The notes beneath the pieces are model-generated. The model was not told the DNA's origin. It was given only the letters and a program-made list of their open reading frames with translations, and ran no database searches. Both the position numbers and the translations under genes were made by a program. From Rhodospirillaceae bacterium (lineage in GTDB: Bacteria > Pseudomonadota > Gammaproteobacteria > Burkholderiales > SG8-41): a DNA stretch of 64,000 bases. The stretch is taken from the NCBI GenBank assembly GCA_050260255.1, contig JBLNBW010000107.1, forward strand, positions 1,848 through 65,847, read 5' to 3'. Below are positions 5,213-61,532 of the stretch, in pieces. Position 1 is the stretch's first letter; the number at the start of each line of letters is the position of its first letter.

Positions 5213-6088
5213 GTGTGGACCGACATCGCACGCGACATCAGCGCTGCCACCGGTGATCCGTTCACGGTCCGCACGCGTCGCGAGGTGAGTGGCGGGTGCA
5301 TCAATGCGGGACACGCCGTGAGCGATGGACGCCGCACTTACTTCGTGAAGACCAATGCCGCACCCGCGCACGCGATGTTTGCCGCAGAAGCCGCAGCGCT
5401 CACGGCGATCGCCGGCACGCGCAGCGTGCGCGTGCCGTGCCCGATCTGCCATGGGCGCAACGCCGCCGCTGCATGGCTCGTCCTCGAGCACGTGAATCTT
5501 CATCCGCTTTCGCAAGCGGCGGCGGGCGCTTTGGGTGAGCAGCTCGCCGAACTGCACCGATGCACCGCGGCGCGGTACGGCTGGGATCGCGACAACACGA
5601 TAGGCAGCACACCGCAGGCGAATGCGTGGTGCAGCAACTGGGTGGAATTCTGGCGCGAGCGCCGCCTGCGCCCGCAATACGCGCTCGCCCTTCGGAACGG
5701 TTATGGCGGCGCGCTGCAGGAGAACGGAGAGCGGCTGATGGAGCGGCTCCAGCGCTTCTTCCCGGGCAACATGCCGCCCGCATCACTGCTGCACGGCGAT
5801 CTGTGGTCCGGCAATGCGGCATGCGACATGTCCGATGCGCCGGTCGTGTTCGATCCCGCCAGCTATTACGGCGACCGCGAAGCGGACGTCGCGATGACCG
5901 AGCTCTTCGGCGGCTATCCGCAGGGGTTCTACGCGGCGTATCAAGCATCGTATCGGCTCGATCCGGGCTACCGCGAACGCAGCACGCTGTACAACCTGTA
6001 CCACGTGCTCAACCACCTCAACCTCTTCGGCGGACGCTATCTCGAGCAGGCCGAAGCGATGACGATGCGATTGCTCGCCCTAGCCTAA
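5213..6088 (+). CDS. fructosamine/ketosamine kinase family protein
   Basis: GTG start, 291 aa. LLHGDLWSGN catalytic motif and a kinase-like fold pattern (TYFVKTN..., DPASYYGDRE). Confidence 0.85.
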   Translation: MWTDIARDISAATGDPFTVRTRREVSGGCINAGHAVSDGRRTYFVKTNAAPAHAMFAAEAAALTAIAGTRSVRVPCPICHGRNAAAAWLVLEHVNLHPLSQAAAGALGEQLAELHRCTAARYGWDRDNTIGSTPQANAWCSNWVEFWRERRLRPQYALALRNGYGGALQENGERLMERLQRFFPGNMPPASLLHGDLWSGNAACDMSDAPVVFDPASYYGDREADVAMTELFGGYPQGFYAAYQASYRLDPGYRERSTLYNLYHVLNHLNLFGGRYLEQAEAMTMRLLALA

Positions 6089-57041: not shown

Positions 57042-58295
57042 ATGAGCGATACAGCGACGGACAAGGCGCGCGAGGCGGCCGAGCGACTCTATCGAACCGA
57101 GTCGCGGCGCGTCCTCGCGACACTGATACGGCTGCTCGGCAGCTTCGACCTCGCCGAAGAAGCGCTGCACGATGCATTCGCGGCGGCGGTCGAGCAATGG
57201 CCAATCGAAGGCATCCCGCACAACCCGCGCGCCTGGCTCGTGTCCGCCGGACGATTCAAGGCTATCGACCGAATACGTCGCCGCGCGAAATTCGATGCGA
57301 CGCTTGCCGAGCTTGCGCGCGAGCTCGACGAGGATGCGGAAATCGCGCCGGAGCCCGATGCGGACAGCGTGCAGGACGATCGTCTGCGCCTTGTATTCAC
57401 GTGCTGCCATCCGGCGCTGCCCCCCGATGCGCAGGTCGCGCTCACGTTGCGCGAGGTATGCGGCCTCACCACGGAGGAAATCGCCCACGCATTCCTCACC
57501 GCGCCGTCCACGCTCGCGCAGCGCATCGTGCGCGCCAAGAACAAGATACGCGCCGCGCGCATTCCCTATCGAGTGCCCACGCAGGAGGATTTGCCCGAAC
57601 GCCTAGACGCCGTGCTGCGCGTGATCTACCTTGTATTCAACGAAGGTTATTCGGCGTCGTCGGGCGAATTGGTCACGCGCCACGATCTCTCGGGCGAAGC
57701 GATCCGTCTCGGCCGGCTGCTGGTGGAGCTTCTGCCCGAGCCCGAAGTGCTGGGACTGCTCGCGCTCATGCTGCTCCAGGAATCGCGACGCGCGGCCCGC
57801 ACGTCCGCCGAGGGTGAAATCATTCTGCTCGCCGATCAGGATCGCACGCTGTGGAACCGTGAGCAGATCGCCGAAGGCCATGCGCTGGTGCAACGCGCGC
57901 TGTCGTCTCAGCGGATCGGGCCCTATGCATTGCAAGCCGCCATCGCAGCGGTACATGCCGAAGCGGCGAGCGAGGCCGACACCGACTGGCCGCAGATCGT
58001 TGCGCTGTACGATGTGCTCATGCGCGTGCATCCCACACCGGTGGTCGCACTCAACCGCGCGGTCGCCGTCGCGATGCGGGATGGCCCGCAAGCGGGTCTT
58101 GTCATCGTCGACGCTCTTCTCGCCGCAGGCGATCTCTCCGATTATCACTTGGCACATGCGGCCCGCGCCGATCTCTGCCGTCGGCTCGGCCGGAAAGCCG
58201 AAGCCCGCGCATCGTATCGGCGCGCGCTCTCGCTCGTACGCCAGGCGCCCGAACGGCGCTTTCTCGAACGCCGGCTCGCCGAACTCGCCGGCTGA
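57042..58295 (+). CDS. ECF sigma factor with a long C-terminal TPR-like extension (ECF42-type)
   Basis: 417 aa. Sigma2 (NPRAWLVSAGRFKAIDRIRR), sigma4 (ALTLREVCGLTTEEIAHAFL...AQRIVRAKNKI), then a ~230-aa extension (VIYLVFNEGY...). Adjacent YCII/DGPF genes. Confidence 0.88.
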   Translation: MSDTATDKAREAAERLYRTESRRVLATLIRLLGSFDLAEEALHDAFAAAVEQWPIEGIPHNPRAWLVSAGRFKAIDRIRRRAKFDATLAELARELDEDAEIAPEPDADSVQDDRLRLVFTCCHPALPPDAQVALTLREVCGLTTEEIAHAFLTAPSTLAQRIVRAKNKIRAARIPYRVPTQEDLPERLDAVLRVIYLVFNEGYSASSGELVTRHDLSGEAIRLGRLLVELLPEPEVLGLLALMLLQESRRAARTSAEGEIILLADQDRTLWNREQIAEGHALVQRALSSQRIGPYALQAAIAAVHAEAASEADTDWPQIVALYDVLMRVHPTPVVALNRAVAVAMRDGPQAGLVIVDALLAAGDLSDYHLAHAARADLCRRLGRKAEARASYRRALSLVRQAPERRFLERRLAELAG

Positions 58296-58313: not shown

Positions 58314-58340
58314 TGTCGATTTGCGGGAGCGCCATTCGAC
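58314..58340 (+). promoter_or_regulatory. candidate ECF42-dependent promoter P1 (TGTCGA-N17-CGAC)
   Basis: cgATGTCGATTTgcgggaGCGCCAttCGACTA, 34 nt upstream of the YCII gene ATG. Nearly identical block at 58772-58798. Confidence 0.6.
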
Positions 58341-58373
58341 TAGGATAGTGTCCCGCTCACTTTGGAGAACCCC

Positions 58374-58757
58374 ATGAAGTTCCTGTGTTTGATCTGCGCG
58401 GAAAAGGTCATGGAACAGATGCCGGAAGCCGATGCGGCGGCGCATTACCGCGAATATGCTGACTTTACGGAATCGATACGCCGCAGCGGCCATTTCATAG
58501 ATTGCAATCGCTTGCTGCCTGCAGCGACGGCCACGACAATACGGGTGCGCAAAGGCGCGATCACCGCGACCGACGGCCCGTTTGCCGAAACGAAGGAACA
58601 GTTCGGCGGCTATTACGTGATCCGAGCGCGCGATTTGAACGAGGCTATCCTGGTCGCCTCCAGGATTCCCGGCGCGGCGCGTGGTTGCGTGGAAATCCGG
58701 GCGATCGCTGATGATCAGCAGACGGTGCAGGCGCTCGGATTGCCCGGCGCCGCCTAG
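58374..58757 (+). CDS. YCII-related (DGPF) domain protein
   Basis: MKFLCLICAEK..., TDGPFAETKEQFGGYYVIRARDLNEAILVASRIP: the classic YCII/DGPF pattern. 127 aa. Confidence 0.88.
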   Translation: MKFLCLICAEKVMEQMPEADAAAHYREYADFTESIRRSGHFIDCNRLLPAATATTIRVRKGAITATDGPFAETKEQFGGYYVIRARDLNEAILVASRIPGAARGCVEIRAIADDQQTVQALGLPGAA

Positions 58758-58771
58758 GCCGACGTTTACGA

Positions 58772-58798
58772 TGTCGATTTCGGCATGCGCCAAACGAC
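58772..58798 (+). promoter_or_regulatory. candidate ECF42-dependent promoter P2 (TGTCGA-N17-CGAC)
   Basis: cgATGTCGATTTcggcatGCGCCAaaCGACTA, 32 nt upstream of the second YCII ATG. Same spacing as P1. Confidence 0.6.
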
Positions 58799-58829: not shown

Positions 58830-59207
58830 ATGAAGTATCTTTGCCTGGTCTATCTGGACGAGCGCCGTTTGGACGAGCTGCCGGACGAAGACTGCGTCGC
58901 TTACGACGCATCGATACGGGCGAGCGGCCACTGCATTGCGTCCGAAGCGCTCGAATCCGTGCAGACCGCCACAACGGTCCGCGTGCGCGACGGCAGGGTG
59001 TCGGTCACCGACGGGCCGTTCGCCGAAACCAAGGAACAGCTCGCCGGCTTCTACATGATCGATGCGCGCGACCTCGACGAAGCCATCCACATCGCGTCGA
59101 AAATCCCGCCGGCGCGCGTCGGCAGCATCGAAGTTCGTCCCGTGCGGCCGATACGCGAGACGGTCGCCCAACGCAAAGCGCCCGCTGTGGCAAAGGAGGC
59201 ATCATGA
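58830..59207 (+). CDS. YCII-related (DGPF) domain protein
   Basis: MKYLCLVYLDE..., TDGPFAETKEQLAGFYMIDARDLDEAIHIASKIP. GGAGGAG SD. Stop overlaps the next start (ATGA). Confidence 0.9.
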   Translation: MKYLCLVYLDERRLDELPDEDCVAYDASIRASGHCIASEALESVQTATTVRVRDGRVSVTDGPFAETKEQLAGFYMIDARDLDEAIHIASKIPPARVGSIEVRPVRPIRETVAQRKAPAVAKEAS

Positions 59208-60328
59208 AACTCTTGATCACCGTAGCCACGCGCAAGGGCGCGTGGCTGTATCACGGCACTTCTGCGCGCGATACCTGGCGTGTAGACGGCCCGCATTTCC
59301 TCGGCCACGTGATCAGCCAGGTGGTGCTCGATCCGCGCGATCGCACGACGCTGCTTGCAGCGGCTAAAACCGGGCATCTGGGCCCCACGATCTTCCGCTC
59401 CACCGATCTCGGTCGTACCTGGAAAGAAGCCGCACAGCCGCCGGCTTTCGCCAAGGCGACGGCCGGTGCGCAGGGCCGCTCGGTCGATCACACGTTCTGG
59501 CTGACGCCGGGGCCGGCGAGCGAGCGCAACGTGTGGTACGCAGGCACCTCGCCGCAAGGTCTTTTCCGCTCCGAAGACGGCGGCGTGACGTGGCAGCCGT
59601 TTTCCACCATCAACGAGGACCCGCAGTACCGCAAATGGATGGGCACCGTGCAGGACGGAACGCCCGATGGGCCCAAGCTGCACTCCATCATCGTCGATCC
59701 GCGCGATCCGGCGCACATGTACTTTGCGATGTCGGGCGGCGGCGTTCACGAGACGCGCGACCGCGGGCGCACGTGGACTCCGCTGCTCAAGGGACTCGAG
59801 GTAGTCGAAGGTTTCGATCGCAGCGAGCCGACCTTTCACGACCCGCATTGCATTCGCATGTGTCCGACCAATCCGGACCGTCTCTATCAGCAGAATCACT
59901 GCGGCATTTACCGCATCGACCGCCCGTCCGACGTGTGGCTGCGCATCGGCAAAAACATGCCGGCGCACGTCGGAGACATCGGCTTTCCACTGGTCGTCCA
60001 TCCGCGCGATGCGAACGCCGCGTGGGTGTTTCCGATGGACGGCACGACGGTATGGCCGCGCACGAGCCCGGACGGCAAACCGGCGGTGTACGGCACGCGC
60101 AATGCCGGTGAAACGTGGGATCGGCTCGATGCAGGCTTGCCGCGCGAGCAGGCATGGTGGACCGTGAAGCGTCAGGCCATGACGGCCGATGCAGCCGATC
60201 CCGTCGGGCTTTATTTCGGCACGACGAGCGGCGAGCTCTGGGCGAGCCGCGACGAAGGTCGGAACTGGGCGTGCATGGCGCAGCATCTGCCGGAGATCTA
60301 CGCAGTGGACGCGGCGCAACTCGAGTAG
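59204..60328 (+). CDS. BNR/Asp-box beta-propeller protein (sialidase-fold, Ycf48-like), cytoplasmic
   Basis: AAGGAGG SD. Repeated S/T-x-D-x-G-x-T-W boxes (STDLGRTWK, SEDGGVTWQ, TRDRGRTWT, NAGETWD, SRDEGRNWA). No signal peptide. 374 aa. Confidence 0.8.
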   Translation: MKLLITVATRKGAWLYHGTSARDTWRVDGPHFLGHVISQVVLDPRDRTTLLAAAKTGHLGPTIFRSTDLGRTWKEAAQPPAFAKATAGAQGRSVDHTFWLTPGPASERNVWYAGTSPQGLFRSEDGGVTWQPFSTINEDPQYRKWMGTVQDGTPDGPKLHSIIVDPRDPAHMYFAMSGGGVHETRDRGRTWTPLLKGLEVVEGFDRSEPTFHDPHCIRMCPTNPDRLYQQNHCGIYRIDRPSDVWLRIGKNMPAHVGDIGFPLVVHPRDANAAWVFPMDGTTVWPRTSPDGKPAVYGTRNAGETWDRLDAGLPREQAWWTVKRQAMTADAADPVGLYFGTTSGELWASRDEGRNWACMAQHLPEIYAVDAAQLE

Positions 60329-60337
60329 CCGTCGGCG

Positions 60338-60595
60338 ATGAAAGTACTGATACCGAGCGCGCTGCGGTCCTACACCGAAAGCAGCATCGCCGAAGCGAGC
60401 GGCGCGACGCTCGCCGAAGTGCTGGCCGACCTGGATCGCCGCTACGCAGGCATACGGTTCCGCATGGTCGATGAGCAGGATCGCATACGGCGTCATATCC
60501 GCGTGTTCGTAAACGGCGAGCAGGTGCACGACCTCGCCCGAACCCTGGCGCCGGCCGATGAAGTCGTCATCGTGCAGGCCTTGAGCGGCGGCTAG
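60338..60595 (+). CDS. MoaD/ThiS-family ubiquitin-like beta-grasp protein ending in Gly-Gly
   Basis: 85 aa. ...HIRVFVNGEQVHDLARTLAPADEVVIVQALSGG*. Starts 9 nt after the propeller gene stop. Confidence 0.78.
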   Translation: MKVLIPSALRSYTESSIAEASGATLAEVLADLDRRYAGIRFRMVDEQDRIRRHIRVFVNGEQVHDLARTLAPADEVVIVQALSGG

Positions 60596-60667: not shown

Positions 60668-61084
60668 ATGCGATACATGATCCTCGTGAAAGCGACCAAG
60701 GATTCGGAAGCCGGCGTGATGCCTCCCGAGCATCTCATCGCCCAGATGGCGGCCTTCCACGAAGAACTCGCGCAAGCCGGCGTGCTCGTCGACGCATCCG
60801 GGCTGCAGGCGAGCTCGAAAGGATGGCGCGTACGCTACAACGGGAGCGAGCGGACGCTAATCGACGGTCCGTTCACCGAGACCAAAGAACTGATTGCGGG
60901 CTACACGATCATCCGCGTGAACTCGCCAGAAGAAGCGCTGGAATGGTCCTTGCGCTTTCCCAATCCGTCCATCGACGGCAGACACGCAGAAATCGAAGTG
61001 CGGCGCTTCTTCGAGCTGGACGATTTCGGTCGCAGCAAGGCGGTAGACCGCTTTCGCGAGCTCGAAGCGAGCAGGGCCGCGTAA
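60668..61084 (+). CDS. YCII-related (DGPF) domain protein
   Basis: MRYMILVKATKDSEAGVMP..., IDGPFTETKELIAGYTIIRVNSPEEALEW. GGGAGA SD. 138 aa. Confidence 0.9.
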   Translation: MRYMILVKATKDSEAGVMPPEHLIAQMAAFHEELAQAGVLVDASGLQASSKGWRVRYNGSERTLIDGPFTETKELIAGYTIIRVNSPEEALEWSLRFPNPSIDGRHAEIEVRRFFELDDFGRSKAVDRFRELEASRAA

Positions 61085-61109: not shown

Positions 61110-61532
61110 ATGAAAATCGAGCCTTATCTTTTTTTCGAAGGTCGCTGTGAAGAAGCCATCGAGTTCTACCGCAACGCGGTCGGCGCGGAAGTTTTGATGC
61201 TGATGCGCTACAAGGACAGTCCCGAAACGCCGCCGCCAGGCCAATTGCCGCCCGGTTCCGAGCAGAAGATCATGCATGCGTCGCTGCGCATCGGCGAAAC
61301 GAACGTCATGGCCTCCGACGGCTTCTGCAGTGGAGCGACGAAATTCCAGGGGTTTTCGCTGTCGCTTACCGCAAAGAACGAAGGCGAAGCGGACAAGCTG
61401 TTCGCTGCGCTGAGCGATGGCGGGCAGGTTCAGATGCCGCTTGGGAAGACGTTCTTTTCGACGCGTTTCGGCATGCTGGTCGATCGCTACGGGGTGTCGT
61501 GGATGATCATCGTGCCCGCCCCCGAACGCTGA
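61110..61532 (+). CDS. VOC/glyoxalase-fold protein (PhnB-like)
   Basis: MKIEPYLFFEGRCEEAIEFYRNAVGAEV...IMHASLRIGETNVMASDG...DRYGVSWMI: the PhnB/3-demethylubiquinone-MTase-like family pattern. Confidence 0.88.
   Translation: MKIEPYLFFEGRCEEAIEFYRNAVGAEVLMLMRYKDSPETPPPGQLPPGSEQKIMHASLRIGETNVMASDGFCSGATKFQGFSLSLTAKNEGEADKLFAALSDGGQVQMPLGKTFFSTRFGMLVDRYGVSWMIIVPAPER

Follow-up and report, generated by a model that had tools for sequence, protein, structure and literature searches.

To our knowledge, sulfur carriers of the ThiS/MoaD type feed only a few acceptors, in the synthesis of molybdenum cofactor (Moco), thiamin, cysteine/methionine and thiosugars or thio-cofactors and in the thiolation of tRNA. 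In the systems MoaD-MoaE, ThiS-ThiG, CysO-CysM and CysO-BexX, the gene of a carrier with a free Gly-Gly tail neighbours that of its user protein. A comparable arrangement is found in a 64,000-nucleotide stretch of bacterial DNA (assembly GCA_050260255.1, contig JBLNBW010000107.1, positions 1,848 to 65,847; hereafter the window), in which a Gly-Gly-terminated protein of the ThiS/MoaD family is encoded directly downstream of a beta-propeller. The partner is a seven-bladed Asp-box propeller, unlike MoaE, ThiG or the folds dependent on pyridoxal phosphate (PLP). We tentatively read the pair, at slightly less than an even chance, as a sulfur-carrier protein with a dedicated acceptor enzyme of a new type and fold. 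The two genes are the following:

59204..60328, + strand: seven-bladed Asp-box beta-propeller of 374 amino acids (aa), 3B7F / Reut_B4987 family (PDB match, Pfam BNR)
60338..60595, + strand: CysO-like ThiS/MoaD-family beta-grasp protein of 85 aa with the C-terminus QALSGG (Pfam ThiS, PDB matches)

These gene calls match exactly the coordinates and the description of the pair in an initial annotation, which was made from the sequence alone. The start codon of the propeller gene overlaps the stop codon of the preceding gene, YCII-2 (ATGA), with an AAGGAGG motif 6 nucleotides (nt) upstream, and a spacer of 9 nt separates the propeller gene from that of the small protein.

The small protein matches the Pfam family ThiS (PF02597) over residues 3-85 with 47.6 bits (cut-off 22.5), and its tail was found to read ...VIVQALSGG followed by a stop, as annotated. 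With this above-threshold match and the exact C-terminal Gly-Gly, it is a genuine GG-terminated member of the ThiS/MoaD family. Its best matches in the PDB are the CysO chains 4N6E_B (E = 7e-11) and 3DWG_C (E = 4e-10), sulfur carriers from A. orientalis and M. tuberculosis. The best NCBIfam match, SAMP1 (NF041918), reaches 41.7 against a cut-off of 60, and the archaeal MoaD model (TIGR01687) 35.9 against 49.5. CysO proper works with the O-phosphoserine sulfhydrylase CysM and usually has a JAMM protease (Mec+) at its locus; the window locus holds no homologue of CysM or BexX. A role of the CysO type is not indicated, because there is no PALP (CysM/CysK) gene on the window contig (C107) and no Prok-JAB (JAMM) gene anywhere in the genome. 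Rhodanese matches, of which the genome holds 15, are likewise absent from the window contig; like the PALP matches, they occur on other contigs only.

The propeller exhibits five clear SxDxGxxW Asp-boxes (Pfam BNR 37.1 bits, cut-off 27) and aligns over residues 4-371 with PDB entry 3B7F (E = 8.8e-155), at ~65% identity as counted by eye from the alignment. This entry is Reut_B4987 (YP_299179.1) of Ralstonia eutropha (Cupriavidus) JMP134, which is labelled “glycosyl hydrolase, BNR repeat.” It shows no structural difference from the window propeller and was solved without a ubiquitin-like (Ubl) partner. It is described as a structural-genomics deposit, a single seven-bladed propeller with five Asp-boxes whose function is listed as “not known” (PMC2716378), and the only paper found to mention “3B7F” surveys the structures of Asp-box propellers. 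When the model of a homologue with 80% identity is superimposed on 3B7F, the Foldseek TM-score is 0.94; the structural matches ranked after it are GH74 enzymes (TM 0.29-0.51, 15-19% identity), Ycf48, DAIP and sortilin. The propeller has no assigned function, but its fold family is known, and the structure of an orthologue has been solved. Its annotated lack of a signal peptide was upheld: none is evident, and the alignment to 3B7F runs end to end, starting in the first beta-strand. The propeller is consequently predicted to be cytoplasmic.

Close relatives of the propeller number in the thousands. Of 8000 candidates scored, the best 120 all share at least 80% identity with it, and ~404 clusters (50% identity) fall at E < 1e-30. 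Most of the close homologues (P0008-P0120) are 392-396 aa long and carry a basic N-terminal extension of ~20 residues; this extension is missing from the window propeller, where its space is taken by the overlapping YCII-2 gene. One relative of 704 aa (P0171) carries a cytoplasmic Ser/Thr protein kinase as an N-terminal fusion partner of the propeller, and the linker between the two has no membrane segment. Two other apparent N-terminal fusions (P0138 and P0214) were discarded as low-complexity, out-of-frame gene calls.

The pairing of the two genes is widely conserved. A ThiS-family open reading frame (ORF) lies directly downstream of the propeller in 80/80 related loci from Burkholderiales, Rhodocyclales, Alpha- and Gammaproteobacteria, Gemmatimonadota, Vicinamibacteria and Nitrospinota, so that the pairing is more than chance. 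Among 84 close loci, the tail ALSGG was found in 81, the other three being truncated by contig ends, and the intergenic spacer is -4 nt in 15 loci, with a second concentration of lengths between +2 and +16 nt. Diverged orthologues (34-73% identity) have an adjacent GG-terminated ThiS-family gene in 17 of 20 cases, in either gene order. In Thermoplasmatota archaea, the ThiS gene precedes the propeller gene with a spacer of 1-12 nt (six of six loci). The tails of the 17 diverged partners and of the archaeal partners read end in SGG, AGG or TGG. True ThiS-propeller fusions form four 90%-identity clusters, 69-76% identical to each other, with a linker of 9-12 residues behind the GG; their internal Gly-Gly resembles that of MoaX, the MoaD-MoaE fusion of M. 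tuberculosis. A full-length propeller orthologue was detected in 35 of 401 Pseudomonadota genomes, with one copy each. The exact conservation of the C-terminal Gly-Gly fits chemistry at this terminus. The initial annotation had asked whether the pair occurs elsewhere and held that a lack of conservation would speak against it; the 80/80, 17/20 and 6/6 loci show the opposite. The tight coupling that it had proposed is borne out by the fixed adjacency in the close loci, by both gene orders in the diverged ones and by the four fusion clusters.

All-against-all clustering of the ORFs in the 80 loci revealed no conserved third gene. Minority neighbours are YCII (26 of 80 loci), ECF42 sigma factor (18), VOC (17), DUF1428-like, TctC and SRPBCC-like genes. 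A Pfam tally of 105 neighbours at 22 diverged loci returned background families only, for example LysR and ABC transporters, and the neighbours of three orphan propellers, which lack an adjacent ThiS-family gene, are unrelated to each other. Two beta-grasp surveys of the Aravind group contain no link between ThiS/MoaD proteins and a propeller, the word “propeller” being absent or confined to a figure abbreviation; literature searches on sulfur carriers or thiocarboxylates together with propellers yielded nothing relevant and no paper describing the pair.

As the initial annotation stated, the window holds no E1, JAMM, MoaE, ThiG or CysM gene. It had regarded the missing E1 (the ThiF-family adenylating enzyme) as an anomaly and the absence of an orphan E1 from the genome as a possible argument against its proposal. 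Neither point applies. The genome encodes a sole ThiF-family E1, of the MoeB type (contig C296, 265 bits), whose gene overlaps a preceding S41 protease ORF and whose true product has ~250-270 aa and no rhodanese domain; an E1 is thus available to the small protein at the gene level. There are three stand-alone ThiS-family genes in the genome, adjoining MoaE (C218), ThiG (C152) and, in the window, the propeller, and the MoaD-MoaE and ThiS-ThiG pairs have no adjacent E1 either. The absence of an E1 beside the propeller pair is therefore ordinary: each carrier adjoins its user or presumed user, and the E1, encoded in trans, may be shared by the window pair as it is by MoaD and ThiS of the same genome. 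The thiS-thiG pair on C152 is itself adjoined by a nitrile hydratase alpha-subunit gene (locus L087, 2109-3110). A ThiF-family E1 was also found in 34/34 other pair-carrying genomes tested, and ThiF and a ThiI-like PP-loop protein are encoded divergently beside the ThiS-propeller genes in one lineage of archaea. Linked genes for E1, E2-like and JAMM proteins, as expected of Ubl conjugation or defence systems, are absent from the neighbourhoods of ~100 loci. A defence system was considered and discarded, as PADLOC gave no match to Ubl-based defence systems.

Conserved residues were identified in 161 full-length family representatives that are 31-59% identical to the window propeller. T9 is present in 100% of them, H160, H215 and Q230 in 98% each, and K11, R22, H232, R286 and R323 in 96% each, followed by D329 (95%), Y337 and T340 (94% each), H266 (92%) and N231 (91%); a Cys stands beside H215, at position 213 or 216. 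The core of T9, K11, H160, H215, Q230, H232, H266, R286 and R323 is kept in the clade of P. aeruginosa and Ralstonia, in archaea and in orphan propellers. This clade of P. aeruginosa and Ralstonia has, by contrast, lost R22, Y337 and E116, a candidate Arg/Tyr/Glu set. According to the strand pattern of the model, T9/K11, H232, R286 and T340 are located in B-C turns, and H160, H215 and F261 are the second residues of innermost A strands. From this topology, the conserved polar residues are expected to open on one face of the propeller around the central channel. The residue set suggests a real binding site or an intrinsic catalytic or ligand site; it would be intrinsic because orphan propellers, which have no dedicated Ubl, retain the set as well. 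Lys and Arg in such a site would suit an anionic group, for example a (thio)carboxylate or phosphate.

Structure predictions are consistent with contact between the two proteins. A read-through fusion of the pair from a homologous locus (L004), in which the natural intergenic region serves as a 32-residue linker, was modelled with AlphaFold2 from 30 paired rows. The predicted template modelling score (pTM) was 0.84, compared with ~0.73 estimated for a randomly placed small domain, and the predicted local distance difference test (pLDDT) was ~30 in the linker and 76-92 in the small domain. These values suggest a defined interface between propeller and small domain in the model. A natural archaeal ThiS-propeller fusion was modelled with a mean pLDDT of 94.9, an ordered linker (block means 72-92) and a pTM of 0.82.

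The surroundings of the pair point to a stress regulon. ECF42/DGPF modules such as those of Streptomyces venezuelae (Sven_0747), P. putida (ECF-10) and P. aeruginosa (PA1351) comprise a TPR-extended sigma factor and no anti-sigma factor, as here, and YCII neighbours preceded by TGTCGA...CGAC/CGTC promoters; the window and P. aeruginosa have the same layout (PMC3832394, PMC8999054). Apart from the pair, the cluster in the window consists of the following features:

57042..58295, + strand: ECF42-type sigma factor (sigma-70 regions 2 and 4, DUF6596, TPR C-terminal extension; Pfam/NCBIfam)
58314..58340, + strand: promoter P1, TGTCGA-N17-CGAC, right behind the sigma gene and ahead of YCII-1 (pattern scan, sequence)
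58374..58757, + strand: YCII/DGPF-family protein 1, YCII-1 (Pfam YCII 64 bits)
58772..58798, + strand: promoter P2, TGTCGATTTCGGCATGCGCCAAACGAC, i.e., TGTCGATTT-N-CGAC, 31 nt 5' of the YCII-2 start (pattern scan)
58830..59207, + strand: YCII/DGPF-family protein 2, YCII-2 (Pfam YCII 81.5 bits)
60668..61084, + strand: YCII/DGPF-family protein 3 (Pfam YCII 55.9 bits)
61110..61532, + strand: VOC-superfamily protein (PhnB/YjdN-like), last gene of the cluster (Pfam 3-dmu-9_3-mt 55 bits, Glyoxalase 34.5 bits)

All genes between 57042 and 61532 are located on the + strand in a compact arrangement, and terminator-like matches in this stretch are no commoner than in shuffled sequence. The sigma factor gene matches DUF6596 (133 bits), Sigma70_r2, Sigma70_r4_2 and TPR_2 in Pfam and the ECF superfamily in NCBIfam. 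YCII-1 likely starts at the ATG at 58374, which is preceded by a GGAGAA Shine-Dalgarno motif, the mechanical ORF beginning at a TTG at 58362. The NCBIfam match of the VOC protein to YjdN (99.8 bits) falls under the cut-off of 122.

The motif TGTCGATTT-N-CGAC occurs twice in the window (58314 and 58772), each time with a 17-nt spacer. P2 precedes the genes for YCII-2, the propeller and the MoaD-like protein and is the probable promoter of this operon. The same motif was found right after the sigma factor gene in at least 13 related loci. In nine loci without an adjacent sigma factor gene, it lies up to 180 nt upstream of the propeller gene, 17-143 nt before the candidate propeller starts and ~33-38 nt before them in five loci, compared with a chance expectation of 0.6 (Poisson P = 2e-8); a tenth instance precedes a 73%-identical orthologue (L095). 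The P2 promoter postulated by the initial annotation, and with it ECF42-type transcription of the pair, is supported by the motif at 58772-58798 and by its recurrence across loci. An ECF42 promoter consensus was reportedly given by Liu, Pinto and Mascher in 2018. An extended form of the motif, (G)ATGTCGATTT...CGAC with a fixed 17-nt spacer, is common to the window sites and P. aeruginosa (L117 3501-3527, minus strand) and could serve for genome-wide prediction of the ECF42 regulon.

In P. aeruginosa, the locus lies beside pmpM and contains genes for a sigma factor, an MFS transporter, a VOC protein, YciI, a MoaD/ThiS protein, an “exo-alpha-sialidase,” YbaK and a second VOC protein, with the motif preceding the YciI gene. 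These genes are presumably PA1351-PA1358, counted back from PmpM, which we take to be PA1361, as the record itself carries no PA numbers. PA1351 is an orphan ECF sigma factor without assigned function, and no functional study of PA1355 or PA1356 was found in the literature. According to a transcriptome paper, PA1356 promotes colonisation, adhesion and biofilm formation (PMC11538994), a role that we take to follow from the “sialidase” label.

An ECF42 marker domain is encoded in 23 of 35 pair-carrying genomes compared with 75 of 366 others (odds ratio 7.4, P = 6e-8), a comparison that is confounded by phylogeny and genome size. Since 12 of the 35 genomes that carry the pair lack ECF42, the link is a facultative one at the level of regulation rather than an obligatory one; 75 of 98 ECF42-positive genomes have no pair. 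Taken together, domains, YCII neighbours and promoter motif place the pair in the ECF42 regulon, as judged at the sequence level. It would accordingly be made as part of a cytoplasmic stress response, co-transcribed with YCII/DGPF and VOC proteins from ECF42-type promoters. The ECF42 literature examined does not name the propeller/Ubl pair as a target, and the pair, as a concrete, testable member of this ECF42 / YCII(DGPF) / VOC stress regulon, offers a handle on its physiological role. What is new here is the ECF42-promoter and phyletic link, the precedent of the MoaD-MoaE and ThiS-ThiG pairs in the same genome, the residue set common to orphan propellers and the archaeal ThiF/ThiI synteny.

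Three options had been put forward for the pair, a thiocarboxylate system, a conjugation system and a non-enzymatic adaptor, and the evidence favours the first. In this model, the single MoeB-type E1 encoded elsewhere in the genome would adenylate the small protein at its C-terminal Gly-Gly, and the protein would next be loaded with sulfur as a thiocarboxylate. Its flexible tail would dock in a pocket on one face of the propeller, lined by the invariant or nearly invariant residues T9, K11, H160, H215, Q230, N231, H232, R286 and R323, where the sulfur would be handed to a substrate that is probably anionic. If this is true, the propeller represents a fifth type of acceptor, which would add a fold new among acceptors and probably also a new repair reaction or a new product that contains sulfur. 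It would also provide a function for the orphan structure 3B7F and for the “sialidase”-labelled genes in P. aeruginosa, Ralstonia, Cupriavidus, Burkholderia and Streptomyces.

Several observations weigh against a carrier-acceptor pair. Three of the 20 diverged propellers (~15% of the sampled family) have no adjacent Ubl, and four genomes of this kind, three of them sampled, each hold only a single ThiS-family gene. No sulfur-metabolism gene recurs beside the pair, either in the clustering of the 80 loci or in the tally of 105 neighbours. The internal GG of the natural fusions would need cleavage, and no JAMM peptidase was seen; in MoaX, cleavage after the GG is needed for activity. The docking argument is indirect, as it is drawn from pTM and pLDDT: the last tail residue of the read-through model (491) has a pLDDT of 31 compared with a mean of 76 for residues 481-490, and the pTM of the natural fusion lies only slightly above the expectation for a free domain. 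In addition, we know of no sulfur-carrier acceptor with a propeller fold. Sortilin, Ycf48 and DAIP, likewise Asp-box propellers, bind peptides or proteins and are not enzymes, and kinase-propeller fusions suggest a role in sensing or binding.

These last points lead to an unlikely, though serious, alternative, in which the propeller binds a ligand or peptide and the beta-grasp protein serves it as a stoichiometric subunit or regulator, the two forming a non-covalent adaptor or sensor pair without E1 chemistry. By analogy with sortilin and neurotensin or Ycf48 and the D1 peptide, the propeller would recognise the C-terminal tail, and the module may serve to detect a small molecule or to signal a state of the cell. 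Sortilin Vps10, Ycf48/HCF136 and DAIP are Asp-box propellers that bind peptide C-termini or protein fragments, as in the complexes of Ycf48 with the D1 peptide (5OJP), DAIP with a thermolysin fragment (6FHP) and sortilin with neurotensin (4PO7). They are extracytoplasmic or lumenal, have no ubiquitin-fold partner and share only 11-17% identity with the window propeller (TM 0.25-0.58); sortilin has ten blades, the window propeller family seven. The short spacers and stop-start overlaps would fit a 1:1 complex, and an adaptor would account for the cytoplasmic kinase fusion without a membrane segment, for a GG that stays internal in the fusions and for the lack of E1, sulfurtransferase or JAMM genes linked to the pair in the bacterial loci tallied. 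However, Gly-Gly stands at the exact C-terminus from Burkholderiales to Thermoplasmatota, whereas beta-grasp adaptors usually lose it if they perform no chemistry at this end (Iyer et al., 2006; PMC1779556). The Thr/Lys/His/Gln/Arg set retained by partnerless propellers resembles a catalytic or ligand site more than an interface with a partner, and the archaeal ThiF and ThiI-like genes beside the pair also argue against an adaptor. We consider it improbable that the propeller, instead of being a passive acceptor, is a new enzyme or sensor that acts directly on, or reads the chemical state of, the Gly-Gly terminus of the Ubl. It may, for example, tell carboxylate from thiocarboxylate and couple sulfur or redox status to signalling, which the kinase-propeller fusions and membership in a stress sigma regulon would fit. 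Such a pair would constitute a new prokaryotic Ubl module, distributed over bacteria and archaea, that works without E2, E3 or JAMM. There is similarly little likelihood of Ubl tagging of the SAMP, TtuB or Urm1-like kind, in which the GG would be conjugated under stress to lysines of the propeller, with K11 as a candidate, or of recruited substrates. SAMP1 is the best NCBIfam match, the GG terminus is invariant, the 96% conserved K11 lies in a T-x-K-G turn, the pair appears to belong to a stress regulon, and Ubls that are both sulfur carriers and modifiers are known in archaea and Thermus (PMC2948915). Against tagging stand the SAMP1 score below its cut-off, the absence of a Prok-JAB/JAMM deconjugase from the genome and of linked E2-like or E1 genes, and the negative PADLOC result.

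The remaining two explanations are far less plausible. That the pair controls the ECF42 sigma factor as a protein partner, for example by binding of the GG tail or the propeller to the TPR extension, is very unlikely, even though ECF42 sigma factors need this extension and a protein interaction has been suggested to control them (PMC8999054), the pair sits in ECF42 clusters here and in P. aeruginosa, and ECF42 is enriched in pair-carrying genomes. The two occur apart in many genomes, as the counts given above show, archaeal copies of the pair are found without such a sigma factor, and the ECF42 promoter that the pair carries identifies it as a target, not a regulator. It is hardly credible that the propeller is a glycoside hydrolase or sialidase and the small protein an unrelated neighbour. 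The database names “exo-alpha-sialidase” and “glycosyl hydrolase, BNR repeat” and the rank of GH74 enzymes among the Foldseek matches speak for this explanation. The sialidase label is not supported by the sequence: BNR_2 scores 20.6 bits against a cut-off of 31.4 and the NCBIfam glycosylhydrolase model 68 against 175, there is no signal peptide, and the propeller has seven blades instead of the six of GH33 sialidases (PMC2716378). The GH74 matches remain at TM ~0.3-0.5 with low identity, and GH74 xyloglucanases need two tandem seven-bladed propellers (PMC2716378), whereas here there is a single one of 374 aa. Moreover, members of the P. aeruginosa/Ralstonia clade do without the candidate Arg/Tyr/Glu residues and yet keep the Thr/Lys/His/Gln/Arg core, and the pairing with a Ubl in 80/80 loci is no chance.

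Some gene arrangements were observed only once. An orphan propeller on a plasmid of Rhodobacter sp. CZR27 (L123 1589-5116), with no adjacent ThiS gene, divergently adjoins the ergothioneine genes egtB-egtD, a cysteinyl-tRNA synthetase gene lies downstream of an archaeal ThiS-propeller pair (L090 5493-8420), and a gene of the YbaK/EbsC (Cys-tRNA-Pro deacylase) family follows the pair in P. aeruginosa (L117 5164-5640), the latter two both relating to cysteine; as single cases, these are set aside as possible coincidence. The ThiS-family partner in the archaeal lineage of L090 is called as 168 aa (5493-5999), about twice the usual length. A VOC/glyoxalase gene is located directly 3' of a Thermoplasmatota ThiS-propeller pair (L120 6243-6626), echoing the VOC association in bacteria. 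Finally, a gammaproteobacterial metagenome-assembled genome carries, ~1.7 kb past an intact pair, a partial second propeller together with a full MoaD-like ORF (L041 8789-9289), and this partial second copy may be a decayed duplicate.

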